From a virus (lineage: Duplodnaviria; Heunggongvirae; Uroviricota; Caudoviricetes): a stretch of DNA of 64,000 nucleotides. The stretch spans positions 103,743 to 167,742 of IMG/VR virus record IMGVR_UViG_3300012943_000001; one strand, given 5' to 3'. The notes under the pieces are model-generated. The model did not search any database, was not told where the DNA came from, and saw only the letters and a list, made by a program, of their open reading frames with translations. Made by a program: the position numbers and the translations under genes. The first letter of the stretch is position 1; the number at the start of each line of letters is the position of its first letter. This document shows positions 2,292 to 61,800 of the stretch, piece by piece.

Positions 2292-3058
2292 AAGAAATGT
2301 TATTCTCATACATAGGAGGTTCGTCGATGTACGGACTTCCTAAAGTAGAGAGTTCCGACAAGGACTACTACGCTATTGGCACCTACAAAGATTTAGGTGG
2401 CGAGGCTCGCCTGTACCCACGCAAGAGGTGGAATCAGAAGAAGCGTACTAAGGCATGGGACGTAGAATATATTGAGCTGTGTGCGTTCTTTACCTACCTA
2501 ATGAACGGGCATATCTTCTACGTAGAGTCTTTATTCGTTCCGAAGAACGCCGTGCATATCAAGAATGATAAGTTTGAGCGTTTGGTTCTAGACAACGTTC
2601 CCAAGCTAATAGACCGCAATCAAGTCCTCGACAATATCTTTGAGAACGCGGAGCATATACAGGCCAGAAACTTGGAATGGGTAGAACTTCTTCGAAGCAA
2701 GATTCTTCCTACCAACCCCGAGAAGAAAATTATAGCGGGCATAGAGAGGATGCATCAGGAATTTATTCGTAAGGGGTTCTTCCATAGAGATTATCTCCAT
2801 GCTATCAGAGTCGCATCATCATCCATATCATTGATGAAAGATGGCGTCTATGGTACGCAGCTCGCAGACTTCGACCCAGAGGCTTTTGAGTTTTGCAGTA
2901 GGTTGAAGCAAAGACCAGAAGATTTTGAGAAGAAGGACGTAGACCAATTCTTGGAATCTCGCCTAGACATACTAAAGAAATTCGACTTCATATTAGATGA
3001 CCAATTCGAATTCAACACGTCTTACGTGCAGTCAGTGATTAAGGAATTCTACCCTTGA
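2288..3058 (+). CDS. MNT-type (Pol-beta superfamily) nucleotidyltransferase
   Basis: GGSSMYGLPKVESSDKDYY matches the GS-x9-13-DhDh NTase motif; start moved to the ATG at 2288 (ATGA overlap) instead of 2177. Confidence 0.5.
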   Translation: MKEMLFSYIGGSSMYGLPKVESSDKDYYAIGTYKDLGGEARLYPRKRWNQKKRTKAWDVEYIELCAFFTYLMNGHIFYVESLFVPKNAVHIKNDKFERLVLDNVPKLIDRNQVLDNIFENAEHIQARNLEWVELLRSKILPTNPEKKIIAGIERMHQEFIRKGFFHRDYLHAIRVASSSISLMKDGVYGTQLADFDPEAFEFCSRLKQRPEDFEKKDVDQFLESRLDILKKFDFILDDQFEFNTSYVQSVIKEFYP

Positions 3059-3085
3059 CTCTTTTGACACTTCTGAGTAAGATAG
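3055..3085 (+). promoter_or_regulatory. sigma70-like promoter (CTTGACT...-10 TAAGAT) upstream of dnaE
   Basis: cccTTGACTcttttgacacttctgagTAAGATagg. Confidence 0.5.
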
Positions 3086-3088
3086 GGT

Positions 3089-5734
3089 ATGCCCTTTGCT
3101 GACAGCTTTAAGCCTTACGGAAACCTTGGATTACACGGCGTACGCCTTCCACAATTTCAAATTGAAAAGAAGTATTACGACCGCCTGAGCATTTCCGACA
3201 AGGCAGACAACGCAACCTTTCTTAAAGAGCTTTGCAGAAAAGCCTTCGTCGAGAAAGGTCTTGGGCAAGCAACTAACAAGGCGGAATACGAGGATAGAGC
3301 GAAGATGGAGCTGGAGGTTTTTAGAGACCTTGGCTTCACTGACTACGTACTTCTTATTTGGGACATTCTTAATTTCTGCCATGAGAATGATATTCCAGTA
3401 GGTCCGGGTCGTGGCTCTGCCGCAGGCTCTTTAGTCCTTTATTTAATTGGCATTACGAATATCGACCCAATTAAAAACGGATTATACTTCGAACGTTTCG
3501 TATCGAAGAGCCGTGCAAAGAAAACGGTCGTTGACGGCATTACGTACTTGGACGGCTCCCTCCTTCCCGACGTTGACTCTGACATTTGTTACTACAAGCG
3601 TTACAAGGTCATCGACTATATTCAGAACAAGTTCCCGGGCAGAACTTGCAAAATTCTCACGGTAAATACTCTGTCTGGCAAGCTCGTATTAAAGGAGGCG
3701 GTCAAGACCGTCCTTGAGTATGCGGAAGATGACGTTAAAGTATTAGCAGGCTACATTGAAAAGGTTTTCGGCGTAGTTGAGAGTCTACATAAAGCTGAAA
3801 CCAAAGAAGGTGAAATCAAGAAGTGGGTTAGTCTCCCTAAGAAGAAATATGAGTTTACAACCAATAAGCAGACATATGAGATTGCCCGCAAGCTAGAAGA
3901 CCTTCCAAAAAACTTTGGCGTCCACCCTTCCGCTCTCGTAGTCAGCTACGATAAGTTGGAGAACTTCTGCCCTGTCCAATTGGCGAAGGTTAAGAAGGAA
4001 GAAGAGGGTTCTGAAATCCATACCGTATCGGGATTCGATATGAACTGGGTGGCAGAGTTTGCAGTTAAGGTTGACGTACTTGGTCTCCGTTCCGTCTCCA
4101 TTGTGGATGACGTATGCAAAATGTTGAAGTTGGATATCAATAGCGTTGACCTAAGCGACCCGAAGATTTATCAACCACTTCAGGACTTGAGGACGCCGCA
4201 TGGTATTTTCCAAATCGAAGCGAATACCCAGTACAAGGCTTGCAAAGATGTAAAACCAAATAGTTTGGCGGAGGTGTCTGACCTTATGGCTCTCGCACGT
4301 CCGGGAGCCTTGGACTATATTAAGAACTATGTCGAAAACAAAGGTGGCAAAGAGGTGGTTAAAGTTCACCCTGAGCTAGACAAGATTCTCGGCGAGACTA
4401 AGAATGTGGCTTTGTATCAAGAGCAAATGATGCAGATTGCCCATAAAGTTTTTGGCTTCACACTTGATGAAGCTGAAATTTTGCGTCGTATCGTTGGTAA
4501 GAAGAAGGTAGACCAAATGCCTGAATGGAAGGAGAAAGTTTACAAGAAGGCTGAAGAAAACGGACTATCCAAAGAGATTGGCGATATGTATTGGAAGATT
4601 CTGGACGACTCTTCTAATTACTCATTCAACAAATCTCACTCTGTCAGCTATGCAACGCTGGCAACGTGGACTCTTTATCTGAAGTTTAATCATCCTCAAT
4701 ACTTCTTCCTCGCTCTTTTGAAGATGGCGAAACATGAGCCAAAGCCTCTTGAAGAAATTTCCAAGATTTCCAAGGAACTTCACTACTTCAATATAAAACT
4801 CCTGCCTCCTGATTTGCTGTTGAGCGATATGGAATTCCGCATCGAGGGTCGCGATATCCGTTACGGACTTGGCTCTATGAAGAGCGTGTCCGAAAAGACT
4901 ATGGCGGCATTGACGACATTTAGGAGTGAAGACGTTTCCAGCAAAGTGACTAACAAGTTTCAATTGTTCCAAGCAGCCAAACAGGCGAAGCTTAACATTG
5001 GCGTTCTGTCCGTTCTAATTCAAGCCGGTGCATTGGCGTCCCTAAAGGGAAGCCGTAGCTACAACGTCATGGAAGCTCAGGTCTTTAATAAACTCTCAGA
5101 CACAGAGAAGAGATTCTTATTAGATATGGGCGAAGAGTTTAACTATGATGTATTCGTGGCCCTAAAGACCATTGTCAAAGAGAAGAGGATGAGAGAGAAT
5201 GGCAAGACGCCAATCATCAAGGACACTCGTTACGCAACCATTCAAAAGCACTGCGAAAAATATCTGAAGATTTATCAGATGAACGCTAAGAACGAGCCGC
5301 TTGCAAACTGGTTCTTTGAAAATAAGCTGTTAGGTTATTCTTACAGCAGCACGCTTTATGATATCTTGAAAGGGGAAATTAAAGGGCTCTCCCCATTGGA
5401 AGACTTCGACACTTACGAACAGAATGATAAGGTTGTGTTTGCGGGCGTAGTCAAGGAAGCTAAAGCAAGCAAGAGCAAGAAGGGAAAGAATATGTTCCGT
5501 CTAGTTGTAGAAGACGGCAACAAATCTCTTGGGACAATCATGTTCGACCATACCTTTGACGAGTGGAAGATGGACCATAGGGATGAAGCGGGCAAACCAA
5601 TCTTTCCTGAAGAAGAGGATATTGTTGTCATCGTAGGCAAGAAATCTAATGACATTGTGTTTCTAGATAATATGACGGTACTAGACGGCAAAGTATACCT
5701 CAAGCTTTCTGAACTCAAAGACAAGGACGAATAA
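3089..5734 (+). CDS. dnaE: DNA polymerase III alpha (DnaE) catalytic core lacking an N-terminal PHP domain
   Basis: GPGRGSAAGSLVLYLIGITNIDP palm/fingers signature; 881 aa; the sigma70-like promoter and -10 TAAGAT lie just upstream. Confidence 0.8.
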   Translation: MPFADSFKPYGNLGLHGVRLPQFQIEKKYYDRLSISDKADNATFLKELCRKAFVEKGLGQATNKAEYEDRAKMELEVFRDLGFTDYVLLIWDILNFCHENDIPVGPGRGSAAGSLVLYLIGITNIDPIKNGLYFERFVSKSRAKKTVVDGITYLDGSLLPDVDSDICYYKRYKVIDYIQNKFPGRTCKILTVNTLSGKLVLKEAVKTVLEYAEDDVKVLAGYIEKVFGVVESLHKAETKEGEIKKWVSLPKKKYEFTTNKQTYEIARKLEDLPKNFGVHPSALVVSYDKLENFCPVQLAKVKKEEEGSEIHTVSGFDMNWVAEFAVKVDVLGLRSVSIVDDVCKMLKLDINSVDLSDPKIYQPLQDLRTPHGIFQIEANTQYKACKDVKPNSLAEVSDLMALARPGALDYIKNYVENKGGKEVVKVHPELDKILGETKNVALYQEQMMQIAHKVFGFTLDEAEILRRIVGKKKVDQMPEWKEKVYKKAEENGLSKEIGDMYWKILDDSSNYSFNKSHSVSYATLATWTLYLKFNHPQYFFLALLKMAKHEPKPLEEISKISKELHYFNIKLLPPDLLLSDMEFRIEGRDIRYGLGSMKSVSEKTMAALTTFRSEDVSSKVTNKFQLFQAAKQAKLNIGVLSVLIQAGALASLKGSRSYNVMEAQVFNKLSDTEKRFLLDMGEEFNYDVFVALKTIVKEKRMRENGKTPIIKDTRYATIQKHCEKYLKIYQMNAKNEPLANWFFENKLLGYSYSSTLYDILKGEIKGLSPLEDFDTYEQNDKVVFAGVVKEAKASKSKKGKNMFRLVVEDGNKSLGTIMFDHTFDEWKMDHRDEAGKPIFPEEEDIVVIVGKKSNDIVFLDNMTVLDGKVYLKLSELKDKDE

Positions 5735-7583: not shown

Positions 7584-7589
7584 TTTTCC

Positions 7590-7620
7590 TTGACTTTCAG
7601 TTAAATGTCTGCATTACTCC
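7590..7620 (+). promoter_or_regulatory. conserved CTTGACTTT-type promoter
   Basis: ccTTGACTttcag...; upstream of the HNH gene. Confidence 0.4.
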
Positions 7621-7630
7621 TCGTACAACC

Positions 7631-8323
7631 ATGAAAATCGTAGCACCTCAAGACCGTACTACCCTTCTTCTTAACTCAGCGTACATGCCCATCAACATCA
7701 CGACGGCAAGGGCTGCGTTCAACCACGTCATTACGGGTAGAGTTAAGCCAATCGACCGCTTCGGTATGCCCCACGGCTTCCCAGAGGACGATAAAGGACA
7801 TCTTATCACGGACATCACCCAGCATTACTGGTTCTTGTTCAAGGACGTACTTGACGGTACGCAAGAGAAGGATGGCACCGTAACCCCTTATGACGAGCGG
7901 GATGGCATCTACTTTGCCAACCAACCCATTCTTCGAAGTGCCCAAGGCTCATGGCCTATTCCTACTATCGCTCTCACTACGAGTAAGTTTTTCCGCAACA
8001 AAACGAGCGGAAAGATTACAATTCAAAGGCTTGCGAAGCACTACAAGAACGTTTGCCAAATTTGTAACCAAAAGTTTCCAACGGCTCAACTTACCATTGA
8101 GCACGTCTTTGCCCGCTCGAAGGGTGGAGCTAACGACGAAACCAACTGCATTCCTACGTGCCAGCCATGTAATTCGCAGAAGGCGGACATCGTTCCATAC
8201 TTCGACAGCAATGGCGTGAACCTTGAAGACAAGATTCAACCTCTTCCTTCTTTCTTGGTTGCGAACCAATCAGACGCTCGTCCCGAGTGGAGTCAGTACA
8301 TCGTACCTACGTACAAGCACTAA
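7631..8323 (+). CDS. HNH endonuclease
   Basis: CQICNQKF...HVFARSKGGANDETNCIPTCQPCNSQK (HNH with Cys pairs). Confidence 0.7.
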   Translation: MKIVAPQDRTTLLLNSAYMPINITTARAAFNHVITGRVKPIDRFGMPHGFPEDDKGHLITDITQHYWFLFKDVLDGTQEKDGTVTPYDERDGIYFANQPILRSAQGSWPIPTIALTTSKFFRNKTSGKITIQRLAKHYKNVCQICNQKFPTAQLTIEHVFARSKGGANDETNCIPTCQPCNSQKADIVPYFDSNGVNLEDKIQPLPSFLVANQSDARPEWSQYIVPTYKH

Positions 8324-8330: not shown

Positions 8331-8370
8331 GCAAAGAATCTTTAACCGGGTTCTTTGCTTGACTTTTTGT
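8331..8370 (+). terminator. intrinsic terminator candidate (overlaps the next promoter)
   Basis: GCAAAGAA-(loop)-TTCTTTGC then TTGACTTTTTG. Confidence 0.4.
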
Positions 8371-8390
8371 AAACGATGGGTATCATGACT
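8359..8390 (+). promoter_or_regulatory. conserved CTTGACTTT-type promoter upstream of clpB
   Basis: gcTTGACTttttgtaaacgatgggTATCATgac. Confidence 0.45.
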
Positions 8391-8392
8391 AC

Positions 8393-10879
8393 ATGAACGA
8401 AAATCTGACGCCACGTCTTAAGGAACTTCTTAAAAGGGCTCGTAAGCGGGCCGTGGAACTTAAAAACGACTACATCGGAGTAGAGCACGTTTTCCTAGCT
8501 TGGCTAGAAGGAACTAGCTCAGGACAGTCTACGGACGTTCTTAAGAAAACGGGTGTTGCGTTTGATAAGATTAAAGAGCTTATCTACAGGGCAATCTTAC
8601 CAGAGGTAGGTAAGGAAGCAGATATTACGAAAGCTATTGACCTGAACGCAGAGCTTGTAGCCAATATAAAAGAAGCGAAGACTATTGCAGATAACATCGG
8701 CAATGAGTATGTAGGCATTGAACATTTTATCATAGCTCTCTTCAATAATGAAGACGGCTTGATTTTCAAAACGTTGGACAGCTTGTCTGTCAACGTCGTA
8801 GATGTTAAGAAAGCTATCTCAGACAGTCTTTCGACTAAAGAGGTTGAACGTACAAAAATTCCTTCTGGCGGTCCAGTTAAAGACGAGTCTGAAGGCAAGA
8901 CGGGTGGAGACTCCATGCTTCGAAAGTTCTCTATTGAACTTGTGGAGCGAGCGTCTAAAGGGGAGCTTGACCCGGTTATCGGTCGTGAGGACGAAGTTAA
9001 GCGTGTCATCAGAATTCTTGCTCGCAAGAAAAAGAACAATCCTGTCTTAGTTGGTTCTGCGGGTGTGGGTAAGACTTCTGTTGTCGAAGGCTTGGCCCTT
9101 CGTATCTACGAAAAGAACGTCCCTCTTGCTCTACAGGACAAACGCATCTTTGCGTTAGACCTTGGCCGCATGATTGCGGGTACGGTTTATAGAGGTCAGT
9201 TTGAAGAGCGTCTAAAGAAAATCATGGAGGAAGTGAAGGCGAATAAGAATTTTATCGTCTTCATCGACGAGCTTCACACGGTCATCGGAGCAGGTGGAGC
9301 AGAAGGCTCTATGGATGCCTCCAACATGATTAAGCCCGCTCTTGCACGTGGAGACTTCAATTGCATAGGTGCAACCACACTCGACGAATATAGGAAGTAC
9401 ATTGAAAAAGACCCAGCTTTGGAACGCAGATTCCAAGGCGTACATGTGGGAGAGCCTAACCCAAAAGATACCGTTCTTATCCTTAAGGGTGCGGCAAAGT
9501 CATATGAGAAGTTTCACGGCGTCAAGTATCCTCTAGAAGTCATCGAAGCAATTGTAGATTTGTCTACTCGCTTCATCAGAGATAGATTCCAACCCGACAA
9601 GAGCTTTGACGTTCTTGACGAAATTGGTGCGGCTGTAAAGCTTGCGAATGGTAAAGTCTCTGGTGATAGACTTGAGACGGAAACAAAGCTCACAGAAATC
9701 AAAAAACTTAAGGCTCAGGTTATCAAAGAAGAGAGATATGAAGAAGCGGGCAAACTCAAAGAAGAAGAGGCTCGTCTTGAATTCGAACTCGCAAAGTACA
9801 AAGATACGGAGAAGACGAAAAAGAGTGTAGTTAAACTTGCGGATGTCCACGAGGTTATTAGCAAGTGGACGGGAGTTCCCGTGGGTGAATTGAGCAAGTC
9901 TGATAAAGAGAAGCTTCTGAATATCGGGGCGACTCTCAAAGCGGTCGTAGTTGGTCAGGACGAAGCAGCAGACGCGGTTGCGAAGAGACTTAAGAAATAC
10001 AACACTCCACTCAAAGACGAGAAGCGTCCAATTGGTGGATTCCTGTTTGTAGGTCCAACGGGCAGCGGCAAGACACTACTTGCCCAAACCGTCGCAGTGA
10101 AACACTTTGGTACTGAAGCGGAGAAATGCTTCCTAGAACTCGACATGAGCGAGTACGTAGATTCTGTATCCGCGAACAGACTGATTGGTCCTCCTCCCGG
10201 ATATGTAGGTTATGATGAAGGCGGCACACTTACCAAGTTCGTAAGAGAGAATCCGTATTCAGTTATCTTGTTTGACGAAATTGAGAAGGCTCACTACCAA
10301 GTAAGACTCCTCCTTCTTCAAATCTTAGATAAGGGATGCTTGACAGACAACAAAGGCATTGTGGTCGATTTCAAGAACACAATCATCATCGCCACCACGA
10401 ACGAGGCTATGGACGTTGCAAAAAGCATGGGCTTTGGAACTGCGGAAAGTATCAAAGAAAGTGTGCGTTCAAATATGATTACAAAGCTCAAGCAAACTTT
10501 TTCGCCTGAGCTTATCAACAGATTTGAAATTGCTTTCTTCAATAAATTGACAAAAGACACCGCTCGCCAAGTGGCAGAACTTGAAATTGCAAAGCTGAAT
10601 GGACGCCTTATAAAAGCCAAAGCCAAAGTTAAATGCCAGCCTGACGCTCTCGACCTCATATTGAAGAAGGGTTTTGATGACACGCTAGGTGCAAGGAATA
10701 TGCGAAGCGAAGTGGAGCGTCTGATAGAAGATGCTTTGACAGATGATTTCCTTAAGGAGAATATACCAGAAAACAGTGTAATTGTATTCAGAGCGGAGAA
10801 TGATTCTCTCGCTTATGAAATAACAAAAGAAACATATGAACACACTACTTCTCGTATATCTAGTCTGGCTACCTCTTAG
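8393..10879 (+). CDS. clpB: ClpB/ClpA-family AAA+ chaperone (two nucleotide-binding domains)
   Basis: Clp_N repeat N-term; Walker A GSAGVGKT and GPTGSGKT; coiled-coil M-domain between the NBDs. Confidence 0.85.
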
Positions 10880-11090: not shown

Positions 11091-11093
11091 TTG

Positions 11094-11125
11094 TTGACTT
11101 TTTTGACATTGTGGATATTATAGAT
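11094..11125 (+). promoter_or_regulatory. conserved TTGACTTTT-type promoter
   Basis: tgTTGACTtttttgacattgtggatATTATAgat. Confidence 0.5.
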
Positions 11126-11179
11126 GATGAAATCCGCAGTAAGTGCGGCTTGTCTTAACAATCAAAAGAGGAAATACAT

Positions 11180-12082
11180 ATGGATATCCACGGATATTCC
11201 GCACACATTCTTGTGAATGGTCGGAAGGTAAAAGAGTATCGCCACAAGGGACTTACGTTCATTGAGGCCAAAGACGGAACAGAGTTTACCGTCGAAGTAA
11301 AGAATCATACAGGCCAGAGAATTTTGGCAATTGTATCGGTCGATGGACTAGATATCATCGACGGAAAATCGGCAACGAGCAAGTCTCGCGGTTATATCAT
11401 TAACCCGCATTCAGCAGATACATTCTCTGGATGGCGTCGAAGCAAAGAGCAGGTTGCTTCTTTCAAGTTCACAACTAAAGAGAAGAGCTATGCAACAGAG
11501 AAGGGCGAAGGTCAGAACAACGGTGTCATCGCAATCAGATTGATTGCGGAGAAACTTAAGCCGTTCATTCCACAGTTTGTCGCTCCCGCACCTGAACCGT
11601 ATCAATGGCCGTCTCAACCACGTACCCCATTCCTTCCTCCATCCTTTGGAGACCATGTGATTTCAGGTACATCAGCACCTACATTAGGTGGAGGAACAAC
11701 AACCAGCAACAGACCGCGTACTCGTGTAACGTATAGTGCTAACGGACTATTTGCAGGTCCAGCCACCAGAGGAGTACAACCAGCTCAGGCGGAAACGTTC
11801 AACTACTCTGTACAATCAACTAGTCTTAATGAAGAGTCTGTGGCAGTTGCGGGTGCATCATTTGATATGGGCACGGGTTGGGGCACAGCCAAAGAAGAGA
11901 AGGTTGTCGAAACTGAATTCGAATACGGCGTAGAGCTTGGCACATTAGAGTTCTTCTATGCAAGCCGCGACGCACTTAAAGCAATGGGTATTCCATTGGT
12001 AACGCAAAGAGAAGTCCCAGCCCTTCCACGAGGATTTAAGGACGCACCATACGCACAACCACCAAAAGACTGGAGAGGGTAA
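11180..12082 (+). CDS. hypothetical protein
   Basis: 300-aa ORF after a terminator plus promoter. Confidence 0.55.
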   Translation: MDIHGYSAHILVNGRKVKEYRHKGLTFIEAKDGTEFTVEVKNHTGQRILAIVSVDGLDIIDGKSATSKSRGYIINPHSADTFSGWRRSKEQVASFKFTTKEKSYATEKGEGQNNGVIAIRLIAEKLKPFIPQFVAPAPEPYQWPSQPRTPFLPPSFGDHVISGTSAPTLGGGTTTSNRPRTRVTYSANGLFAGPATRGVQPAQAETFNYSVQSTSLNEESVAVAGASFDMGTGWGTAKEEKVVETEFEYGVELGTLEFFYASRDALKAMGIPLVTQREVPALPRGFKDAPYAQPPKDWRG

Positions 12083-13216: not shown

Positions 13217-13217
13217 T

Positions 13218-13247
13218 TTGACAAATTCGAAAGCTTTGAGTAAGATG
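13218..13247 (+). promoter_or_regulatory. sigma70-like promoter (TTGACA ... TAAGAT)
   Basis: tTTGACAaattcgaaagctttgagTAAGATgcg. Confidence 0.5.
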
Positions 13248-13252
13248 CGTGG

Positions 13253-13825
13253 ATGCGTATAGCACTAGACTTAGACGGGGTACTCGTCAACTTCACCAAA
13301 GCGGCCTGTAAGAAGATGGGCGAACCGTATCCAAGCAAGCTAGTATTCCCTAGTTACTCGTGGATATTCGACAAGTACGGCAAGCAGTCTTGTTACAAGA
13401 GGCTTCGCGGCCACCACTTCTGGGTAGAGATGGAGAAGTATCCGTGGGCAGACAAGCTCGTGAGTCTTGTAGATGAATTGTCTGATGGCAATTGGATGTT
13501 TCTTACAAAGCCGATGAGAGACCCGTATTGTTTCTCTGGTAAAGCTGAATGGTTGATGAAACACTATCCACAATACATGGATAGACTGACTATCATCAGC
13601 GGACCTAAAGAAGAGTTCGTCAGGAATATGTATGATATTCTCATTGATGATAAACCTGAGAATATTCAGGAGTGGAGTAAGAGTGGAGGCAGTCCCTTTT
13701 ATTGGCACGAAGTATCCGATGACATAGACGACGAAGTTATTGAGGAAAGACTCGAAAAGCTTAAGAAGCATATTCTCGGTCTAGTAGAATACAAAGAACG
13801 CATGAGCGGCCACAAAGACTTTTAA
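13253..13825 (+). CDS. HAD-superfamily 5'(3')-deoxyribonucleotidase
   Basis: MRIALDLDGVLVNF (HAD motif I DxDGV). Confidence 0.7.
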   Translation: MRIALDLDGVLVNFTKAACKKMGEPYPSKLVFPSYSWIFDKYGKQSCYKRLRGHHFWVEMEKYPWADKLVSLVDELSDGNWMFLTKPMRDPYCFSGKAEWLMKHYPQYMDRLTIISGPKEEFVRNMYDILIDDKPENIQEWSKSGGSPFYWHEVSDDIDDEVIEERLEKLKKHILGLVEYKERMSGHKDF

Positions 13826-15407: not shown

Positions 15408-15436
15408 GACGCATCGTAAATGGTGCGTCTTTTTTC
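15408..15436 (+). terminator. rho-independent terminator
   Basis: AGACGCAtcgtaaatggTGCGTCT + TTTTTT. Confidence 0.65.
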
Positions 15437-15462
15437 TTGACTTTCGCAACAGGATAGGCAGA
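15437..15462 (+). promoter_or_regulatory. conserved CTTGACTTT-type promoter upstream of the PARP gene
   Basis: tcTTGACTttcgcaacaggataggcagaatg. Confidence 0.45.
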
Positions 15463-16866
15463 ATGCACGCTATGCCTATCCCTAGCGAATCCTTCGGAAC
15501 AAGTCCGTTCGACTCTAAGTTCGACGTAGTTAAATCTGTCACGCTTCAAATGACGGACTTTGCCGAGGGAAACAACAAGTTCTATCAGATGGAGCTGCAC
15601 AAGGGCGATAGCGGCAAGTTCCGCATCTTCTCCGCGTACGGACGCACGGGCAAGACTCCAGTGAAGGAAGAGCGTATTCCTCGTGACGAAGCTCACGCTA
15701 TCTCTGAGATGGATAAGATTCAAAAGTCCAAAGAGAAAAAGGGCTATCGCAAAGTAGATATGGTTGCGACGAACCACGGTACGGACGTAGGCAACGCGAA
15801 GATTCTTTCTCAGGATTTCAAGAAGGATAAGGTAGTTGCCCCAAACAAGAATCAAAAGGCCGCGATTCAGCTAGAAGCCTCCATTGTGGGATTGGTAGAA
15901 CGCCTGTACTCTGAGGCTGGACAAAGCTGTAAGAGCCAGCTTAACGGCTCCCTGCAATCGACCGCATCCAATCCTCTAGGTACGCTTTCTCTTACTCAGC
16001 TTCAGGAAGGTAAAGACATCATTCTGAAAGTTAACGCTCTTCTGTCACAGAAGAAAAGCCTTATCGACTCTATTGAGCCAGAGGTCGTCGAACTTTCAAA
16101 CGCGTTCTATAGTGCAATCCCCCAAGAAATCCCATTGCGTCCAAAAGATGCAGACGGGCGTAAGGAATGGATTCGTAGATTTGCTTTGAACAACTCAAAG
16201 ATTCTTGACGAAAAGAATGACTTGCTAGACCTGCTTGGCGACGTTAAAGGCATGATGGCTGGTTTCGCCACAGACGATATCGCCGTCAAGTATAACGAGC
16301 TGAATTGCAAAGTCGAAGTCGCTCCTACCGACAAGTTCCGTTGGGCCAAGGACTATTTGGAGTCTTCCCAGTCCCGCCACCACAATTGGAAGCTTATCGT
16401 TAAGAAAGTTTGGCAGATTGAAAGCAAAGGACAGAGCGGCTATCGTAGTACGGTAGAGAAGATTGGAAATGTCCAGCAACTTTTCCACGGCTCCCGTGCA
16501 TCAAATATCATGGGTATCTGCAAAAAAGGCTTGCTATTACGTCCGCCCGGTGCATATGTTACCGGAAGCATGTTCGGCAACGGTCTTTACTTTGCCGACC
16601 AATCCACAAAATCTTCTCAGTACGCCACCGCACGTTTCGGAGGAAGCTCCTCAAGCTATGGTAACTCGTATTTCATGTTCATTGCGGATGTCGCATTGGG
16701 CAAGATTATGAAGTATCAAGACTCCCAAAGCTATCTACAGAAAGCTCCTCACGGCTACGACTCTGTACAGGGCGAAAAGGGCCGCAGTCTAGTACACAAC
16801 GAATTTATCGTCTACGATATCAAACAAAACGAACTCAAATACTTAATCGAATTCGAACAAAGGTAA
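15463..16866 (+). CDS. poly(ADP-ribose) polymerase-like protein (WGR + PARP catalytic domain)
   Basis: H-Y-E triad: FHGSRASN, GNGLYFADQS, NEFIVYD; WGR-like FYQMELH...FSAYGRTGKT at the N-term. Confidence 0.8.
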   Translation: MHAMPIPSESFGTSPFDSKFDVVKSVTLQMTDFAEGNNKFYQMELHKGDSGKFRIFSAYGRTGKTPVKEERIPRDEAHAISEMDKIQKSKEKKGYRKVDMVATNHGTDVGNAKILSQDFKKDKVVAPNKNQKAAIQLEASIVGLVERLYSEAGQSCKSQLNGSLQSTASNPLGTLSLTQLQEGKDIILKVNALLSQKKSLIDSIEPEVVELSNAFYSAIPQEIPLRPKDADGRKEWIRRFALNNSKILDEKNDLLDLLGDVKGMMAGFATDDIAVKYNELNCKVEVAPTDKFRWAKDYLESSQSRHHNWKLIVKKVWQIESKGQSGYRSTVEKIGNVQQLFHGSRASNIMGICKKGLLLRPPGAYVTGSMFGNGLYFADQSTKSSQYATARFGGSSSSYGNSYFMFIADVALGKIMKYQDSQSYLQKAPHGYDSVQGEKGRSLVHNEFIVYDIKQNELKYLIEFEQR

Positions 16867-17783: not shown

Positions 17784-17810
17784 CCCTCGAAGAAATTCGG
17801 GGGTTTTTTC
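17784..17810 (+). terminator. rho-independent terminator
   Basis: CCCTCGAAgaaaTTCGGGGG + TTTTTT. Confidence 0.65.
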
Positions 17811-17842
17811 TTGACTTCTAACCCAAAGTCTGGACACTGTAC
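17811..17842 (+). promoter_or_regulatory. conserved CTTGACTT-type promoter upstream of the macro gene
   Basis: tcTTGACTtctaacccaaagtctggacactgTACGTC. Confidence 0.4.
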
Positions 17843-17845
17843 GTC

Positions 17846-18337
17846 ATGATTACAGAACGAATCGGTAACCTTCTGACGGACCCGCAAGTGAACGTCATCG
17901 CTCACCAGTGTAATTGTTTCCATACAATGGGAGGAGGTATCGCTCGCATCATCGCTCAGATGTATCCTGAAGCCGTCCGTGCAGATAATGAAACCCCTCA
18001 CGGTGACGAAAGTAAGATGGGTACGTTCTCCGTAGCGACTGTACAGAGAGGCGATAAAAAAATCCGCATCGTCAATATGTATGGTCAATACAAGACGAGC
18101 AATACGGAGCGTATGACCCGATACGACGCTCTACACGACGCTCTTTTCGAGCTTGAGGCAACGATTCGTGCCAGCGTTAACGTAGACCAATACATTGTAG
18201 GAGTTCCCTACGGATTGGGCTCGGCTCTTGGCGGAGGTTCGTGGACCATTGTGCGGGCAATCCTCGAACGCATCTTTGGTAAATCGCCCGTCCAACTTCA
18301 TATTATTCGACTTCCTGATGTTCCAGACCTCGAATAA
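17846..18337 (+). CDS. macro domain protein (ADP-ribose binding / hydrolase)
   Basis: NVIAHQCNCFHTMGGGIARII matches the macro VNAAN...GGGV core. Confidence 0.75.
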   Translation: MITERIGNLLTDPQVNVIAHQCNCFHTMGGGIARIIAQMYPEAVRADNETPHGDESKMGTFSVATVQRGDKKIRIVNMYGQYKTSNTERMTRYDALHDALFELEATIRASVNVDQYIVGVPYGLGSALGGGSWTIVRAILERIFGKSPVQLHIIRLPDVPDLE

Positions 18338-18339
18338 GC

Positions 18340-18372: not shown

Positions 18373-18379
18373 TCGCAAC

Positions 18380-25568: not shown

Positions 25569-25570
25569 GC

Positions 25571-43038: not shown

Positions 43039-43041
43039 CTT

Positions 43042-45938: not shown

Positions 45939-46414
45939 TTTCAGAGTTCCATATGTTAGTTGGTATCGTTGGCTCTGGCAAGAGCACGTTATGCAAGAAG
46001 TTACTTGTAGATAAGCAAGCGACTCTTGTCAGCTCTGACGATATACGCCTAGAGGTTTGTGGCAACATGACAGACCAATCCAAGAATGGCTTAATCTTTA
46101 CAAAGATTATTCCTGAGAGGATTAAGGCTGGACTGAAGGCGGGCAACGTTGTGTACGACGCAACGAACTATAACCGCAAGTCTCGCCGTGAGTGGTTGAC
46201 TCTAGCCAAGTCTCTAGGTGCGAGGACGGTAGTTCATCAAATGCTAACCCCATTCGATGAGTGCCGTCGTCGTAATGCCGCACGCCTAGAGCGTGTTGTG
46301 CCTGACTTCGTAATCGACAAGATGGTTGCGGGTTGGGAAGCTCCAGACATGAACATCGAGAAAATCGACGAAATCATCCTAGTATCTGAGAGTGGCGTTG
46401 CGAAAGTTGCTTGA
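45935..46414 (+). CDS. pnk: polynucleotide 5'-kinase domain protein (T4 Pnk kinase-like)
   Basis: P-loop GIVGSGKST; VVYDATNYNRKSRREW resembles the T4 Pnk DxTN...R segment. Confidence 0.7.
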   Translation: MISEFHMLVGIVGSGKSTLCKKLLVDKQATLVSSDDIRLEVCGNMTDQSKNGLIFTKIIPERIKAGLKAGNVVYDATNYNRKSRREWLTLAKSLGARTVVHQMLTPFDECRRRNAARLERVVPDFVIDKMVAGWEAPDMNIEKIDEIILVSESGVAKVA

Positions 46415-46442
46415 CTTTCCCGCCATTCTCGGTACTCTTAAC
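46411..46442 (+). promoter_or_regulatory. conserved CTTGACTTTCC-type promoter
   Basis: gcTTGACTttcccgccattctcggTACTCTtaa. Confidence 0.45.
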
Positions 46443-46465
46443 GTTTTACCTAATCAAATCTTACT

Positions 46466-46933
46466 ATGTCCAAAATCAATCTCGCCAAAGCCCTCAAAGT
46501 CAAAAATTCCCTTATCAGCGAAATCAATCGCTCCAAGGCTGTCTTTGCTCGTGAAAACTCCCGTAAGGAAGGCTCCACGTCCAAGGTTGACCGCGAACAG
46601 CTCTGGGACCAAATCTCCGTCAAAACCCAGCAGTTGGTCAAGCTGAAGGGGCAAATCGCCGCCGCGAACATTGCCATCTATCCAACGCTTGCCCTTATGG
46701 AGGAGGCTAAGTCTGCAATCACGTTCCTACAGCAGCTCAATACTACAGACGGAAAGGTCGTTGAGCATAGCCGCTATGGTACGGGTCCAAACCTTGAGAC
46801 GAACTTCTCCGCCTTCATCACGCAAGATGGGGTGGATAAGAGGGTCAACGAGTTTCAGAAGATTATCGAAGACGCACAAGATGCGGTGGACGCCTATAAC
46901 GCAACCACATTCATCGAAGTCTCATTCGTCTAA
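46466..46933 (+). CDS. hypothetical protein
   Basis: 155 aa after the promoter at 46411. Confidence 0.5.
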   Translation: MSKINLAKALKVKNSLISEINRSKAVFARENSRKEGSTSKVDREQLWDQISVKTQQLVKLKGQIAAANIAIYPTLALMEEAKSAITFLQQLNTTDGKVVEHSRYGTGPNLETNFSAFITQDGVDKRVNEFQKIIEDAQDAVDAYNATTFIEVSFV

Positions 46934-47151: not shown

Positions 47152-47304
47152 ATGATAAGATTCGCCATCGCGTTCTTATTGGGAGCGGCAGTCGCACTTT
47201 GGTTCCCCTTGTTTATCAAGGCGGTCCTCTGCCTCATTGGGTACGTAATCGTTGCGTCCTTAGCTACTCTCCTCTTCTTGGCTATCGTGGGTAGCAAGGC
47301 TTGA
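47152..47304 (+). CDS. small hydrophobic peptide (~50 aa, two TM)
   Basis: Manual ORF MIRFAIAFLLGAAVALWFPLF...; not in the ORF track (<60 aa). Confidence 0.35.
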   Translation: MIRFAIAFLLGAAVALWFPLFIKAVLCLIGYVIVASLATLLFLAIVGSKA

Positions 47305-47332
47305 CTTTACTGAAACGGCTACTAGAATGAAT
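47301..47332 (+). promoter_or_regulatory. conserved CTTGACTTTACTGAAACG-type promoter (-10 TAGAAT)
   Basis: gcTTGACTttactgaaacggctacTAGAATgaa. Confidence 0.55.
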
Positions 47333-47355
47333 TTCATGATTAACTCCCAACCCTA

Positions 47356-47649
47356 ATGGCTATTGTCAAAACAACCCGCTATTACCTGAATGTTTTTGGA
47401 AGCATTCAGAGAGACTTCAAGACTACAGCGTCCGAAGGCTCCAACAATAGAGACGACGTATTCGAATATACATTCCCAAACGACGAACTATTCTTTCAGC
47501 ATTTTTATCGACTCAATATCAAAACCGCTCAGGGCAAACTTCTAAAGGGTAAAACCTTGGTGGGGGTCTATACAAGAAGGGGTCTGGAAAAGAAAGACCG
47601 CCCTCGCCCCCGAATGAACAGCCAAAAATTCAGAGAACGCGACGAATGA
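47356..47649 (+). CDS. hypothetical protein
   Basis: 97 aa after the promoter at 47301. Confidence 0.45.
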   Translation: MAIVKTTRYYLNVFGSIQRDFKTTASEGSNNRDDVFEYTFPNDELFFQHFYRLNIKTAQGKLLKGKTLVGVYTRRGLEKKDRPRPRMNSQKFRERDE

Positions 47650-48890: not shown

Positions 48891-49412
48891 ATGCTGGCAC
48901 CGGCCTATGACCATAAAGACAATCTCTCAGAGGTCTGGGTTCAGTATTCGACGCATCCAGACTTCAAATTCTGGAATGCGGAGCCAACATATCATTTCAC
49001 TCCAGACATTTACCCTACTCAAAAGAAAGAAGAGTGGGTAAGCGTAGATGATAGCGGCAAGATTCATGGCTACTTCTGTGCGTGGGTAGACAAGAACACG
49101 TTCTGCCTCAATGATATTGGCATAGTAAGGTTTGTGGAAGGTAAGCGGTTTTCGCTTGACTTTTGCAGGTACATTGCTAGTATCAGGAAACGGTACAGGC
49201 TAGCACGTTGGGCTTGTATCGAAGGCAATCCCGCCTCAGCGTCTTATGACCATATGGTCAAGTTGCTAGGCGGCAAAAAGGTCGGAACGTTCACCAATAA
49301 GGTGCGGCTATCTGATGGCCAATTCTACAACGAAACTTGGTACGAAGCTCCGGGCGTTGTGCCGCTAAAAAATTACTTCAATGCTAAGAAACAAGCAGAC
49401 CGACAAGGATAA
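48891..49412 (+). CDS. hypothetical protein
   Basis: 173 aa. Confidence 0.5.
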   Translation: MLAPAYDHKDNLSEVWVQYSTHPDFKFWNAEPTYHFTPDIYPTQKKEEWVSVDDSGKIHGYFCAWVDKNTFCLNDIGIVRFVEGKRFSLDFCRYIASIRKRYRLARWACIEGNPASASYDHMVKLLGGKKVGTFTNKVRLSDGQFYNETWYEAPGVVPLKNYFNAKKQADRQG

Positions 49413-50049: not shown

Positions 50050-50446
50050 CCCTATCGTAATCAAAGAGACCCAAGTCCATCATAAAGGCTGGGGTAAAGA
50101 AGTATGGATTGCCAACAACGCAAAATATTGCGGCAAAATACTCTATTTCAACAAGGGTGCAGAATTTTCCATGCACTACCATATGCTGAAGCATGAGACT
50201 TTTTACATTCTTAGTGGCAAGATTGTTTTACGAGGATTCGACCTGAGCGACGCCACCCCGCACGAAGAGACCTACGGACCGGGCACGGTCATCGTAATCC
50301 CCGCAGGAAACCCACACAAGATTTTCGCCATCGAAGAGACCGTCGTCATCGAAGTAAGTACGCAACACTTTGAGGATGACTCGTATAGGATTCAGAGGGG
50401 CGACTCTCAGAAGACCGTCTTCGCCGAGGCGGTAAGAACCGCTTGA
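50042..50446 (+). CDS. cupin-fold protein
   Basis: MHYHMLKHETFYILSG ... NPHKI (cupin metal-site pattern). Confidence 0.6.
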   Translation: MIDPIVIKETQVHHKGWGKEVWIANNAKYCGKILYFNKGAEFSMHYHMLKHETFYILSGKIVLRGFDLSDATPHEETYGPGTVIVIPAGNPHKIFAIEETVVIEVSTQHFEDDSYRIQRGDSQKTVFAEAVRTA

Positions 50447-50475
50447 CTTTCTGGAAACGCTAGGGAGAATGTAAA
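50443..50475 (+). promoter_or_regulatory. conserved CTTGACTTTCTGGAAACG-type promoter
   Basis: gcTTGACTttctggaaacgctagggaGAATGTaaa. Confidence 0.5.
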
Positions 50476-50477
50476 AC

Positions 50478-50933
50478 ATGCAGTTAACCGAATTCGTAAA
50501 ACAAACAGTCCGCAACTTCGACTCGACCGTAAAAAAAGCCGAGGAAAAAGCGGAAGAGATAGAAGCCGCCAAAAGCTGTGCAAAAGATGAATTATCTAAA
50601 TATCTAGAATGCTATATTGAAGAGTTCGTTCTTGAAGGTCGTGTAGTGACCTACCCTCGTCCTCGCAACCTTAAAATCTCATTCGACAATCATGAGGTCG
50701 TCTCAATTTCAATTACGAATCATGAACTGGGGTGCCGCGTAGTAATAAACTGCCCTCTATCCGATAAACACAGCGACACGTTTGCATTTCGAGTTAGCTC
50801 CAAAGAAGATGTAGACACGCTATTTACCAAGAAAGATAATCTCGACCTATTAACTTTAATCAAACAATCTATCTTAAATCATTTCAACTCTGGCGTAAAA
50901 ATCGTTCTTGACTCAGTTCTAAGTAGGTTATAA
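50478..50933 (+). CDS. hypothetical protein
   Basis: 151 aa after the promoter at 50443. Confidence 0.5.
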   Translation: MQLTEFVKQTVRNFDSTVKKAEEKAEEIEAAKSCAKDELSKYLECYIEEFVLEGRVVTYPRPRNLKISFDNHEVVSISITNHELGCRVVINCPLSDKHSDTFAFRVSSKEDVDTLFTKKDNLDLLTLIKQSILNHFNSGVKIVLDSVLSRL

Positions 50934-51776: not shown

Positions 51777-51784
51777 AAAGTCTC

Positions 51785-51815
51785 TTGACAAATCGACCAA
51801 ACCAGATATACTCTA
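51785..51815 (+). promoter_or_regulatory. sigma70-like promoter (TTGACA ... TATACT)
   Basis: tcTTGACAaatcgaccaaaccagaTATACTcta. Confidence 0.5.
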
Positions 51816-51833
51816 GCACATCAAGTTTAACAT

Positions 51834-52058
51834 ATGGCGTTCACACTCAAATCCAAAAAATCTCTCTCGACGATTCTCTCGTCTTTTCAAAAAACACTTG
51901 CAGAGCTTCAAGTTCTAACCGAAGCAAACCAAGCTGAGGTAGCAACCAATCAGACGAGGATAGCGTCTCTTCAGGAGACCAACGCAAATCTCGACGCAGA
52001 GACGAAACAGGCGGCAGTGGTGGCGACAAACCTCAAGTCAATCTTGGGTCAACAGTAA
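51834..52058 (+). CDS. small coiled-coil protein
   Basis: 74 aa; promoter at 51785. Confidence 0.4.
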   Translation: MAFTLKSKKSLSTILSSFQKTLAELQVLTEANQAEVATNQTRIASLQETNANLDAETKQAAVVATNLKSILGQQ

Positions 52059-52176: not shown

Positions 52177-52192
52177 TTCTAAAAATAAAGCT

Positions 52193-52225
52193 TGATTTTC
52201 GAAACATTCAGTGTAATATAGGTTG
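52193..52225 (+). promoter_or_regulatory. conserved CTTGATTTTCGAAAC-type promoter (-10 TAATAT) upstream of the tRNA-array leader
   Basis: gcTTGATTttcgaaacattcagtgTAATATagg. Confidence 0.5.
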
Positions 52226-52429
52226 TAGAAAATTAAGAAAGCAGCAGATGTATAAAACAATTTCCAGTTCATTTAGTAACCCGGCCTCTTCAAGAGCTGC
52301 CCTACCGTTGTCCCATCTCTGGGTCCGCGTAGGAAATCAAGAAGATAAGGGTAATCAGGGTCTCTCTAAGAAAGAGATATAAGGAATAACAAAACACTTT
52401 TGTAATCCGAATATCGTAAAACTTAAAGA

Positions 52430-52460
52430 GGCCCAAGAAGAAATTCTTGGGTCTTTTTTA
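52430..52460 (+). terminator. rho-independent terminator
   Basis: GGCCCAAGAAgaaaTTCTTGGGTC + TTTTTTATT. Confidence 0.7.
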
Positions 52461-52657
52461 TTAACAATTCTCAGGTTGTCGGTAACCACAAAACCGACAC
52501 TAACGTCCGAAGTCACAGTAGGGCGTCCAAACCAGAAGTGCGTCTAGTTTAACTAGGGCCGCTGAGAGGGACGAAACAAATGCCAAGTTTTACGGTATTG
52601 GATTATGTAATAGGTGGCGTCGCGGCCTTGCTCTATATGAGCAGAACGGCGACAAAT

Positions 52658-61083: not shown

Positions 61084-61170
61084 GCCGAATTGGCTCAGTG
61101 GCAACAGCACCGCTTTTGTAAAGCGGCGAGGGAAACCTCTACGTCGGTTCGAGTCCGACATTCGGCTCCA
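61084..61170 (+). tRNA. type II Leu-like tRNA, anticodon loop TTTGTAA (assignment uncertain)
   Basis: GCCGAATTGGCTCAGTGG (Leu-like 5' end); variable hairpin GAGG-GAAA-CCTC; TTCGAGT; ...ATTCGGCTCCA. Confidence 0.5.
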
Positions 61171-61539
61171 CTATCTCACTCTCTTTGAGTCTGAGTTCAA
61201 ATTGCGAAAGTTAGGAGTAAGAGAATGACAGTTTGGACACAGTAGTTCTAAATTCTCTTCCCAACTATTTTCTGCGTTACCGTCGATATGATTAACTTCT
61301 AAAGGTACAAGTTGAGTAACGGGATGTTTGGCTGACCAGCCGCACTTGCAGCATTTAGAATTGTATTTCTGAAATAGATACTTACGAACGAATGGTTTTA
61401 TTTTCTTGGTTATTCCTGTCCAACCGATAAGCTCACGAGCTTGCCAAGTCCTGACGCTATTTTCGTAAGTCGTTTTTCCCTGACATTTTAGGGAGCAATA
61501 TTTCTTTTTAGCAGGAGCGTTACAACAGATACAAACCAT
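61171..61539 (-). CDS. HNH endonuclease
   Basis: CPNCH, NHIDGN, multiple Cys pairs; the only clear minus-strand gene, flanking the tRNA array. Confidence 0.65.
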   Translation of the reverse strand: MVCICCNAPAKKKYCSLKCQGKTTYENSVRTWQARELIGWTGITKKIKPFVRKYLFQKYNSKCCKCGWSAKHPVTQLVPLEVNHIDGNAENSWEENLELLCPNCHSLTPNFRNLNSDSKRVR

Positions 61540-61768
61540 GCTGATTATAACTTTAACCTCGCAACTTTCAACAATTTCTGTGATGTGGTTAGCTTAGAAG
61601 CAGCGAGCCTTAATGAGTGTCGATGTTCCCCGCAGGTGTAAAGATTGCGGACCAAAACATCTTAAACAATTGACCCGTGTGTGATAACAATTCGATAGGG
61701 GATGTTTATCGGTGGTCTGTCGAATGGTCACCAGACTTTGGCGTAACAGCACGCGTCCAGAATTCCTC

Positions 61769-61800
61769 TTGACTCTTTTGACAAGGATTACTAGGATAAA
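61769..61800 (+). promoter_or_regulatory. sigma70-like promoter with tandem TTGACT/TTGACA
   Basis: tcTTGACTcttttgacaaggattacTAGGATaaa. Confidence 0.45.

Follow-up and report, generated by a model that had tools for sequence, protein, structure and literature searches.

What does a short repeat do that stands in front of gene after gene on one strand of a phage genome, and which enzyme reads it? The question is raised by a stretch of 64,000 nucleotides (nt), hereafter the window, which covers positions 103,743 to 167,742 of the IMG/VR record IMGVR_UViG_3300012943_000001 of a virus of the Caudoviricetes. In an earlier note, made from the sequence alone, the repeat was described as a promoter with an extended -35 element, a spacer element GAAAC(G) and a -10 element. 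We consider it likely that the sites are the core promoters of an early or metabolic gene block carried on a single strand, that they are read by a holoenzyme of the sigma70 family, and that the first genes behind them are leaderless, the mRNA beginning at the start codon itself. This leaderless geometry, which is absent from the earlier note, is the most informative feature of the sites. The identity of the polymerase and its sigma factor, and likewise the mode of translation, are deduced from geometry and conservation.

Copies of the repeat and their extent

The window contains 15 exact copies of CTTGACTTT, all on the + strand, compared with a mean of 1.24 and a highest count of 4 over 100 dinucleotide-preserving shuffles of the window; 14 of them lie within 3055-61800 and one more was found at 62353. 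A position matrix was built from 21 sites aligned on TTGACT, and its scores were bimodal, with 22 sites of at least 16 bits on the + strand, none on the - strand, and the next + strand scores at 10 bits or below. Three TTGACA-type sites beyond the matrix set (13218, 32731 and 51785) have an identical layout, and the member at 28914 also carries TTGACA. The earlier count of more than 20 copies was therefore correct, with 22 matrix sites and three TTGACA variants.

Every gene of the window and all 42-44 tRNAs are encoded on the + strand. The window corresponds to positions 29,640-93,639 of a 205,482-bp metagenome contig in ENA, of which about 84 kb out of 205 kb were inspected. In both 10-kb flanks the promoter family continues at three to four copies per 10 kb, on the + strand only, and one flank copy sits 35 nt upstream of the start codon of a DnaB helicase. 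Since a second, independent assembly of the phage, from a JGI data set, has a length of 205,462 bp, the genome of about 205 kb is probably complete. In the literature, the strings TTGACTTT and CTTGACTT were found only in primers and unrelated sequences. A near-identity DNA search with 20 kb of the window against GenBank phages gave no match and the best DnaE protein match among these phages is about 32% identical; hence, there is no cultured relative to lend transcript data.

Promoter anatomy

The consensus of the sites is g-C-TTGACT-TT-c-nn-r-A-(A/C)-A-(c)-(g)-n-T-nnn-nAnn(a/c)T. TTGAC is kept in 23 of the 24 sites, the exception being TTGATT at 52192. The extension of the -35 element that had been proposed was confirmed, with C at -36 in 20/21 sites and TT on the 3' side of the hexamer in 19-20/21. 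The -10 element, which had been placed about 17 nt downstream, follows after a spacer of 16 or 17 nt in all 24 sites, though its hexamer is weak (nAnnnT): A-11 and T-7 are each present in 16/21 sites, the remaining positions are near background, and degenerate forms such as AAAGCT, CATCCT, GACACT and TACTCT are found.

The spacer element is real and enriched, but it is looser than the GAAAC(G) of the earlier description, since exact GAAAC is found in 5 of the 24 sites (31031, 38208, 47301, 50443 and, shifted by 1 nt, 52192). Its core consists of A at +12 (18/24; p = 4e-6), A or C at +13 (22/24) and A at +14 (22/24; p = 2e-10), whereas A has a frequency of 0.24-0.33 at +12 to +14 in the control, 63 other TTGACW hexamers. 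Relative to the -10 element it lies at about -23 to -18, with A(A/C)A at about -23 to -21 and C or G next. Because of the canonical -35 hexamer, the 16-17 nt spacer, A-11 and T-7, the co-orientation with genes, the placement behind terminators or at gene ends and the conservation at orthologous genes in relatives, the motif can be assigned, as first proposed, to the sigma70-type promoters, with start sites that are predicted from it.

Leaderless geometry

Distances were determined from every + strand TTGAC[AT] (58 hexamers) to every ATG or GTG that opens an open reading frame (ORF) of at least 60 codons. At 34, 35, 36 and 37 nt the counts were 3, 9, 2 and 1, over a background of about 0.3 per bin, and none was seen on the - strand. 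Of the 15 events, the one with TTGAC at 39618 falls within an ORF and is probably due to chance, which leaves 14 genes: dnaE, the clpC-like gene, NT5C, PARP, 17846, NAPRTase, nadE, the NMNAT-like gene, 32765, dCMP deaminase, RNA ligase, 50478, 61804 and 62391. In these genes the start codon comes 5-9 nt, mostly 6-7 nt, after the end of the -10 element, in indirect agreement with the initiation 6-9 nt downstream of the -10 that the earlier note expected. As this is where a sigma70 holoenzyme initiates, the mRNAs of the 14 genes are probably leaderless, with the start codon at the predicted transcription start. The promoter-proximal start codons appear credible, because Pfam domains begin at residues 3-9 in NT5C, NadE, the NMNAT-like protein, NAPRTase and dCMP deaminase, and because DnaE is conserved from M1 between the window and a related phage, L013. 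Eight further promoters have leaders of 5-51 nt, all but one without a Shine-Dalgarno (SD) sequence.

If the first in-frame start codon is used, the ORFs 15463, 32738 and 38183 are mis-started. The rule of TTGAC, about 35 nt and ATG would fix the true starts and the transcription units across a family of uncultured jumbo phages, for which the usual SD-guided gene callers are unreliable.

Conservation in related phages

Relatives were found via homologues of the ClpC-like protein and of NadE, as phage contigs of about 205-222 kb, and the syntenic relatives L013 (NCBI GCA_040384425.1, a 222-kb contig), L014 and L015 were compared with the window. Identity to the window is 51-73% for ClpC and 75% for DnaE (L013). 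In these three phages the promoter is present at orthologous genes (dnaE, HNH, clpC, NT5C, PARP and others), and the start codon lies 33-36 nt from the -35 element at dnaE, clpC, NT5C and gene 17846. Pairwise identity between orthologous promoters is 0.92 from -36 to -28, 0.57 in the spacer element and 0.49 in the -10 element, compared with 0.33-0.40 in the remaining spacer, the upstream flank and the segment from -10 to the start codon. The -35, the spacer element and the -10 are three islands of constraint amid drifting sequence.

Four clean TTGACW-16-TATAAT-6-ATG units were found in L001, whose DnaE is 60% identical. The dnaE frame of L001 is split (10001-11836 and 12037-13290), perhaps by an intein, an intron or the insertion of a homing endonuclease, unless a frameshift is the cause. 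A marine sister clade is more distant (70 loci; DnaE 44-54% identical; GC content 30-43%); in it, 98 of 661 hexamers lie 35-38 nt from a start, a peak like that of the window. Its 75 dereplicated leaderless promoters follow c-TTGAC(A/T)-17-TGnTAnnaT, with a TG-extended -10 and without the A-rich spacer element. As the marine clade keeps the geometry and the C but differs in these two respects, the leaderless geometry and C at -36 are traits of the family, and what is specific to the clade of the window is the TTT extension, together with the spacer element and a degenerate -10.

Upstream context and translation

The promoters stand in two contexts, namely as insulated units directly after a terminator and as ultra-compact junctions in which the stop codon of the upstream gene lies inside the -35 element. 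A GC-rich hairpin with a T-run abuts the -35 at six sites (8359, 11094, 13218, 15437, 17811 and 32731), which bears out the earlier observation that copies are often placed right after intrinsic terminators. The TGA of T-TGA-CT is the stop of a long upstream ORF at six sites (3055, 25536, 26791, 38208, 46411 and 50443), and the intergenic region at these junctions is about 31 nt, i.e., the core promoter and nothing else. Copies inside the 3' end of the preceding ORF had been reported at 31031 and 38208; both were found again, the former 43 nt inside, and the other five junctions belong with them. Units of about 45 nt with terminator, promoter and leaderless ATG would make very compact expression modules for engineering. 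Gene 20332 starts 8 nt past a strong terminator-like hairpin and T-run (GGGGAGGGTAACCTCCCCTTTTT; 20285-20334) with no promoter between, so that its expression would need read-through of the terminator.

The phage is without SD usage throughout. The mean anti-SD duplex energy of 64 non-leaderless genes was -1.8 kcal/mol, compared with -2.7 kcal/mol at random positions, and a second test, with internal ATGs as controls in the window, L013 and L015, likewise gave no SD enrichment. Upstream of the starts, G is depleted (8-16%) and A is enriched in the same three genomes. Of 78 genes, 14 are counted as leaderless, 8 have short leaders and 43 are tightly coupled to their predecessor, with a gap of at most 5 nt or an overlap with the previous stop. 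Leaderless mRNAs would be translated without an SD sequence, and the layout would be one of promoter, leaderless first gene and downstream genes reached mostly by stop-start coupling, independent of SD sequences. Leaderless first genes, coupled genes and the lack of an SD signal constrain the translation system of the host and provide a clue for host prediction.

The genes for S-adenosylmethionine decarboxylase and spermidine synthase (5734-7583) share one leaderless operon with dnaE, to which their translation is coupled; all close relatives keep this arrangement. At 47336, the start codon next to the promoter opens a mini-ORF of six codons (MINSQP*), the TAA of which overlaps the ATG at 47356 of a 97-residue gene (TAATG); the mini-ORF looks like a ribosome-loading device for gene 47356, which does not begin at the mRNA 5' end. 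The leader of the DUF7918 gene, of about 51 nt and the only long one, is conserved in four genomes (GAAATCCGCAGTAAGTGCGGCTTGTCTTAACAAT). It contains a conserved hairpin (11144-11158) with one compensatory pair, followed by the only strong SD of the region (AAGAGGAAA), and may be a regulatory leader or a protein-binding site.

Which enzyme reads the sites

The simplest reader of the sites would be the host RNA polymerase with its primary sigma factor. Recognition would rest mainly on the near-invariant extended -35, C-TTGACT-TT. Assistance would come from the A(A/C)A-C/G block in the spacer (about -23 to -18), which resembles the Z-element, a target of the beta' zipper in the core polymerase. 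The degenerate -10 would retain A-11 and T-7 only, and transcription would begin 6-8 nt past it, at the A of the start codon in the 14 genes. In the T7 promoters A1 and A2, the Z-element is AACCT and AACAT, respectively, at -22 to -18; it acts through the beta' zipper and, where the -10 is weak, adds its effect to that of the -35 (Yuzenkova et al., PMC3173786). The spacer blocks AAACG, AACAG, AACAC and GAAACG of the window match the T7 element in sequence. Because of this likeness to an element read by the polymerase core, an activator is not required for the spacer element, the role of the beta' zipper being proposed by analogy. The earlier suggestion that GAAAC is recognized by a phage-modified sigma70 holoenzyme or an activator is thus not needed; in addition, Pfam scans of essentially all proteins of the window gave no sigma factor, polymerase subunit or known transcription factor.

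Several points weigh against host polymerase reading leaderless units. Both sigma specificity and the capacity for leaderless translation would depend on the host, and in 45 kb of verrucomicrobial DNA, from a candidate host lineage, no promoter was found that abuts a start codon. A sigma factor or a sigma-remodelling protein could be encoded elsewhere, beyond the roughly 84 kb read of 205 kb. The near-invariance of C(-36) and TT(-29/-28) exceeds the usual demand of sigma70 region 4 and could reflect an extra factor. The spacer element lies 1-2 bp upstream of the register of the Z-element in T7 A1, and across the sites its strength is uncorrelated with the weakness of the -10 (rho = 0.17, p = 0.42), for which reason compensation between the two was rejected. 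The transcription start sites are inferred only from geometry. Finally, 13 of the 14 leaderless starts are ATG and one, at 61804, is GTG; leaderless mRNAs with non-AUG starts tend to be translated poorly.

It is unlikely that the sites are instead read by an enzyme under the direction of the phage, be it a phage sigma factor, a host sigma70 holoenzyme that has been remodelled or modified (for which ADP-ribosylation by the PARP-like enzyme is a candidate) or a holoenzyme with a co-activator, which would recognize the flanks of the extended -35 and the GAAAC-like element. C(-36), T(-30) and TT(-29/-28) are indeed far more conserved than in typical sigma70 promoters, with 92% identity across orthologues. 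However, a primary sigma factor canonically recognizes just such a -35 hexamer, a spacer of 16-17 nt and A-11/T-7. Moreover, TTGACA and TTGACT replace one another at orthologous sites, and the leaderless geometry persists at 13218 and 32731, where C(-36) or TT is lacking. The spacer element is specific to the clade, with a TG-extended -10 in the marine sister clade instead, which would fit a dedicated factor; the Z-element would nevertheless account for it without one. The phage encodes PARP, NADAR, a possible macro protein, a Ser/Thr kinase and PP2C, any of which could modify the host machinery. However, neither a sigma factor nor a transcription factor was detected in the 64-kb window, and the candidate modifiers are themselves expressed from these promoters, so that the first round of transcription cannot need them.

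A more far-reaching proposal, which is distinctly unlikely, is that this family of jumbo phages (the 205-222 kb contigs together with the large marine sister clade) runs a self-sufficient, SD-free expression programme, in which a promoter class with a dominant -35 is firmly tied to leaderless translation and phage modifiers retune the RNA polymerase or the ribosomes of the host, giving leaderless phage mRNAs the advantage over SD-led mRNAs of the host. The modifiers could be the PARP/NADAR/macro-like set, the Ser/Thr kinase and PP2C, two RimK-like R2K ATP-grasp enzymes and the 42 tRNAs. If this were true, the clade-specific spacer element would mark a phage-specific step of recognition.

It is very improbable that the promoters are real but the mRNAs not leaderless, with ATGs that are coincidental or mis-called, with translation that begins further downstream, or with main start sites elsewhere and ordinary leaders. 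The start sites rest on geometry, eight promoters clearly have leaders (5-51 nt) and one supposed leaderless start is GTG. Nevertheless, the peak at 34-37 nt is sharp (15 events, background about 0.3 per bin), the spacing is kept at orthologous genes in diverged genomes and in the sister clade, Pfam domains or ortholog conservation begin 1-9 residues from these ATGs, and no SD sequences were found for alternative starts. It is hardly credible that the repeat is not a promoter at all but an operator, a recombination or packaging signal or a mobile repeat: its conserved 9-mer is unusually rigid for a promoter, but the sites are strictly co-oriented with genes, stand at gene ends or after terminators, have A-11/T-7 at 16-17 nt with the start codon next, and show neither dyad symmetry nor flanking repeat structure. 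The same holds for the view that GAAAC, which resembles the GGAAC -35 of promoters for extracytoplasmic function (ECF) sigma factors, is itself such a -35. An ECF-type promoter was rejected, as a CGT-type -10 placed 16-17 nt past GAAAC would fall on or beyond the start codon, with the transcription start inside the ORF, and as exact GAAAC is found in just 5/24 sites.

Comparison with known leaderless and phage systems

Host polymerase acting on these sites would have a close likeness in T7 A1 and A2, which are phage promoters for the host holoenzyme; the -35 of T7 A1 is also TTGACTT and an AAC-type block is present in the spacer. The differences are that the element here lies 1-2 bp further upstream, that the -10 is much weaker, and that early T7 mRNAs have leaders with SD sequences, whereas most mRNAs here are predicted to start at the ATG. 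The T4 middle promoters (MotA/AsiA) likewise form a class of phage promoters in which a conserved element precedes the sigma70 -10. In these, a MotA box at -30 takes the place of the -35. Here, TTGAC is present in its canonical form and at canonical spacing; therefore, sigma appropriation is not indicated and assignment to the MotA class was rejected. A Bacteroidota sigma-A promoter (TTTG at -33, TAnnTTTG at -7), considered because of the SD-free, A-rich start contexts and a DUF3127 protein, was also rejected: there are 26 copies of TAnnTTTG on the + strand and 32 on the - strand, and 0 and 1 copies, respectively, of the full bipartite motif.

The large Thermus phage phiYS40 is said to use the sigma-A polymerase of its host and to produce mostly leaderless middle and late transcripts; it would thus resemble the phage of the window in relying on host polymerase and in its leaderless transcripts. 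In Deinococcus-Thermus, leaderless transcription from a -10-only promoter is common, with the -10 a few bp upstream of the ORF; the promoters are TANNNT, mostly without a -35, and leadered genes have a clear ribosome-binding-site motif (PMC12340547). Here, in contrast, the -35 is dominant and invariant, the -10 is degenerate and no such motif is seen, and the GC content of the phage, 46%, does not fit Thermus or Deinococcus. In Actinobacteria, leaderless genes are common, with a TANNNT box about 6-8 nt upstream of the start codon (PMC3160421). Leaderless transcripts of these bacteria and their phages start at the AUG, as predicted here, and so does the lambda cI mRNA made from PRM; however, actinobacterial hosts use SD sequences for leadered genes and have a high GC content, and lambda cI is a single regulated case rather than a genome-wide layout. 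The jumbo phage phiKZ has no leaderless transcripts (PMC8244752).

The sites differ from known leaderless systems in the dominant -35, the conserved Z-like spacer block, the stop codons within the -35 and the genome-wide absence of SD sequences; the arrangement is not categorically new. In contrast to the -10-only leaderless promoters of bacteria, it is the -35 that carries information here, and the sites provide a natural set of variants for the study of the poorly defined spacer Z-element.

Individual sites and features

The promoters and the other mapped features are collected in Table 1. Among the driven genes named in the earlier note, DnaE, the ClpC/ClpB-like ATPase, PARP, NAPRTase (pncB), NadE, LemA, dCMP deaminase and RNA ligase were confirmed by Pfam, whereas the matches for macro (gene 17846, E = 0.041) and for isochorismatase, the "pncA" of that note (gene 18380, E = 0.0041), are below threshold.

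Table 1 Promoter sites and other features with their coordinates (window positions unless a relative is named; leader lengths are predictions)
Feature	Position	Strand	-35	Spacer block	-10	Start codon, distance from -35	Predicted leader	Remarks
dnaE promoter	3054..3091	+	TTGACT 3055-3060		TAAGAT 3078-3083	ATG 3089, 34 nt	leaderless	TGA of ORF 2177-3058 within -35; orthologous L013 promoter 35 nt from start
HNH endonuclease gene promoter	7589..7633	+	7590-7595		CATTAC/ATTACT ~7612-7618	ATG 7631, 41 nt	~6 nt, no SD	CTTGACTT kept in 4 genomes
ClpC/ClpB-like ATPase promoter	8358..8395	+	8359-8364	TAAACG	TATCAT 8381-8386	ATG 8393, 34 nt	leaderless	Terminator-like hairpin 8327-8362 overlaps -35; L013/L014/L015 orthologues, start 33-36 nt away
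DUF7918 gene promoter	11093..11182	+	11094-11099		TATTAT 11116-11121	ATG 11180		Terminator 11064-11085 just upstream
NT5C nucleotidase promoter	13217..13255	+	TTGACA 13218-13223	GAAAGC	TAAGAT 13241-13246	ATG 13253, 35 nt	leaderless	Terminator 13188-13211 abuts
WGR-PARP promoter	15436..15474	+	15437-15442	AACAGG	CAGAAT 15459-15464	ATG 15472, 35 nt	leaderless	Terminator 15406-15431 abuts
163-aa gene (weak macro match) promoter	17810..17848	+	17811-17816		GACACT 17833-17838	ATG 17846, 35 nt	leaderless	Terminator 17781-17806 abuts
266-aa gene (weak isochorismatase match) promoter	18339..18382	+	18340-18345	AACACG	TACCGT 18363-18368	ATG 18380, 40 nt	~5 nt	
NAPRTase (pncB) promoter	25535..25573	+	25536-25541	AAACGA	AAAGCT 25558-25563	ATG 25571, 35 nt	leaderless	TGA of ORF 25168-25539 in -35
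nadE promoter	26790..26829	+	26791-26796		CATCCT 26813-26818	ATG 26827, 36 nt	leaderless	TGA of NAPRTase gene in -35
NMNAT-like cytidylyltransferase promoter	28913..28951	+	TTGACA 28914-28919		TACTCT 28936-28941	ATG 28949, 35 nt	leaderless	
Promoter inside 3' end of ORF 30313-31074	31030..31086	+	31031-31036	GAAACA	GACAAT 31054-31059	ATG 31084, 53 nt	~18 nt, no SD	43 nt inside the ORF
63-aa gene promoter	32730..32767	+	TTGACA 32731-32736		CATAGT 32753-32758	ATG 32765, 34 nt	leaderless	Terminator 32706-32729 upstream
lemA promoter	33428..33479	+	33429-33434	AACAGC	AATACT 33451-33456	ATG 33477, 48 nt	~13 nt, no SD	
dCMP deaminase promoter	38207..38245	+	38208-38213	GAAACG	TATCTT 38231-38236	ATG 38243, 35 nt	leaderless	TGA of ORF 37648-38211 in -35
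T4 Rnl1-type RNA ligase promoter	43005..43044	+	43006-43011	AAAACA	AACACT 43028-43033	ATG 43042, 36 nt	leaderless	
155-aa gene promoter	46410..46468	+	46411-46416		TACTCT 46433-46438	ATG 46466, 55 nt	~20 nt, no SD	TGA of ORF 45935-46414 in -35
Mini-ORF promoter	47300..47358	+	47301-47306	GAAACG	TAGAAT 47323-47328	ATG 47336	leaderless	
Promoter-like site within ORF 48891-49412	49155..49183	+	49156-49161		TAGTAT 49178-49183			
151-aa gene promoter	50442..50480	+	50443-50448	GAAACG	GAGAAT 50465-50470	ATG 50478, 35 nt	leaderless	TGA of cupin gene 50042-50446 in -35
TTGACA-variant promoter	51784..51836	+	TTGACA 51785-51790		TATACT 51807-51812	ATG 51834, 49 nt	~14 nt	
Promoter and ~240-nt structured RNA	52191..52470	+	TTGATT 52192-52197	AACATT	TAATAT 52214-52219			
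212-aa gene (signal-peptide-like N-terminus) promoter	61768..61806	+	61769-61774		TAGGAT 61792-61797	GTG 61804, 35 nt	leaderless	
Promoter just outside the range of the earlier note	62353..62393	+	62354-62359	AACAGA	TATGAT 62376-62381	ATG 62391, 37 nt	leaderless	
DUF7918 leader	11121-11182; L013 12772-12833; L014 5390-5451; L015 6306-6367							
NAD+/ADP-ribose module	152-1024, 15472-16866, 17846-19180, 25571-30081; L181 5722-11698							
PP2C/kinase and R2K genes	21266-25166 and 35900-37525							

tRNA array and its upstream RNA

The promoter at 52192 would produce a structured RNA of about 240 nt (52226-52470) with a minimum free energy of -63 kcal/mol (z = -3.6), closed by a strong terminator hairpin with T-run (about 52425-52465) before the first tRNA at 52658. 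A search of the window with Rfam gave only tRNAs, and the RNA matches no family. A promoter had been reported before a leader of the tRNA array. The site is present, but because a strong terminator about 240 nt downstream of it precedes the first tRNA, it may not drive the 9-kb array directly, and the RNA may be a phage small RNA rather than a leader. ARAGORN predicts 42 tRNA genes and Rfam gives 44 matches, all on the + strand at 52658-61170 and 63780-63857, duplicates included. Two calls are odd: one at 56717-56791 has a 2-nt anticodon, and the long tRNA-Ile(tat) at 58718-58809 may bear an intron or be of the tRNA-Ile2 type.

Host and auxiliary genes

The host had been taken to be a proteobacterium or the like, and this was not supported. 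The nearest cellular homologues of ClpC are from Verrucomicrobiota and related lineages of the Planctomycetota-Verrucomicrobiota-Chlamydiota group (42-43% identity), those of NadE from Gamma- and Betaproteobacteria (47-50%), and those of DnaE, phage relatives aside, all from Patescibacteria, the candidate phyla radiation (Saccharibacteria, Paceibacterota and others; about 27-32%). More distant phage relatives are binned in marine metagenome-assembled genomes of Nitrospinales, Halobacteriovorax and Cellvibrionales. In small cellular samples, genes with a strong SD made up 67% in a gammaproteobacterium and 29-35% in two verrucomicrobial samples, compared with 17% in the phage, which shows no SD enrichment; by this measure the phage is nearer to the Verrucomicrobiota. 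As ClpC, NadE, DnaE, the bins and SD usage disagree, and as the verrucomicrobial samples have no promoters abutting start codons, any firm host call was rejected.

The phage carries a large module for NAD+ and ADP-ribose metabolism, comprising SLOG/YAcAr-NADAR, WGR-PARP, a possible macro protein, a possible isochorismatase (PncA), NAPRTase, a glutamine-dependent NadE, the NMNAT-like protein and NUDIX. Its block of pncB, nadE and a gene of about 120 codons is syntenic with a cluster of PncA, NAPRTase, NadE and a 118-residue protein that lies beside NADAR and NrtR in Permianibacter. A PP2C phosphatase gene adjoins that of a 705-residue protein with a weak Ser/Thr kinase domain, and two R2K (RimK-like) ATP-grasp proteins are encoded in tandem. 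The PP2C, kinase-like and R2K proteins might act as modifiers on host proteins, with the ribosome or RNA polymerase as possible targets.

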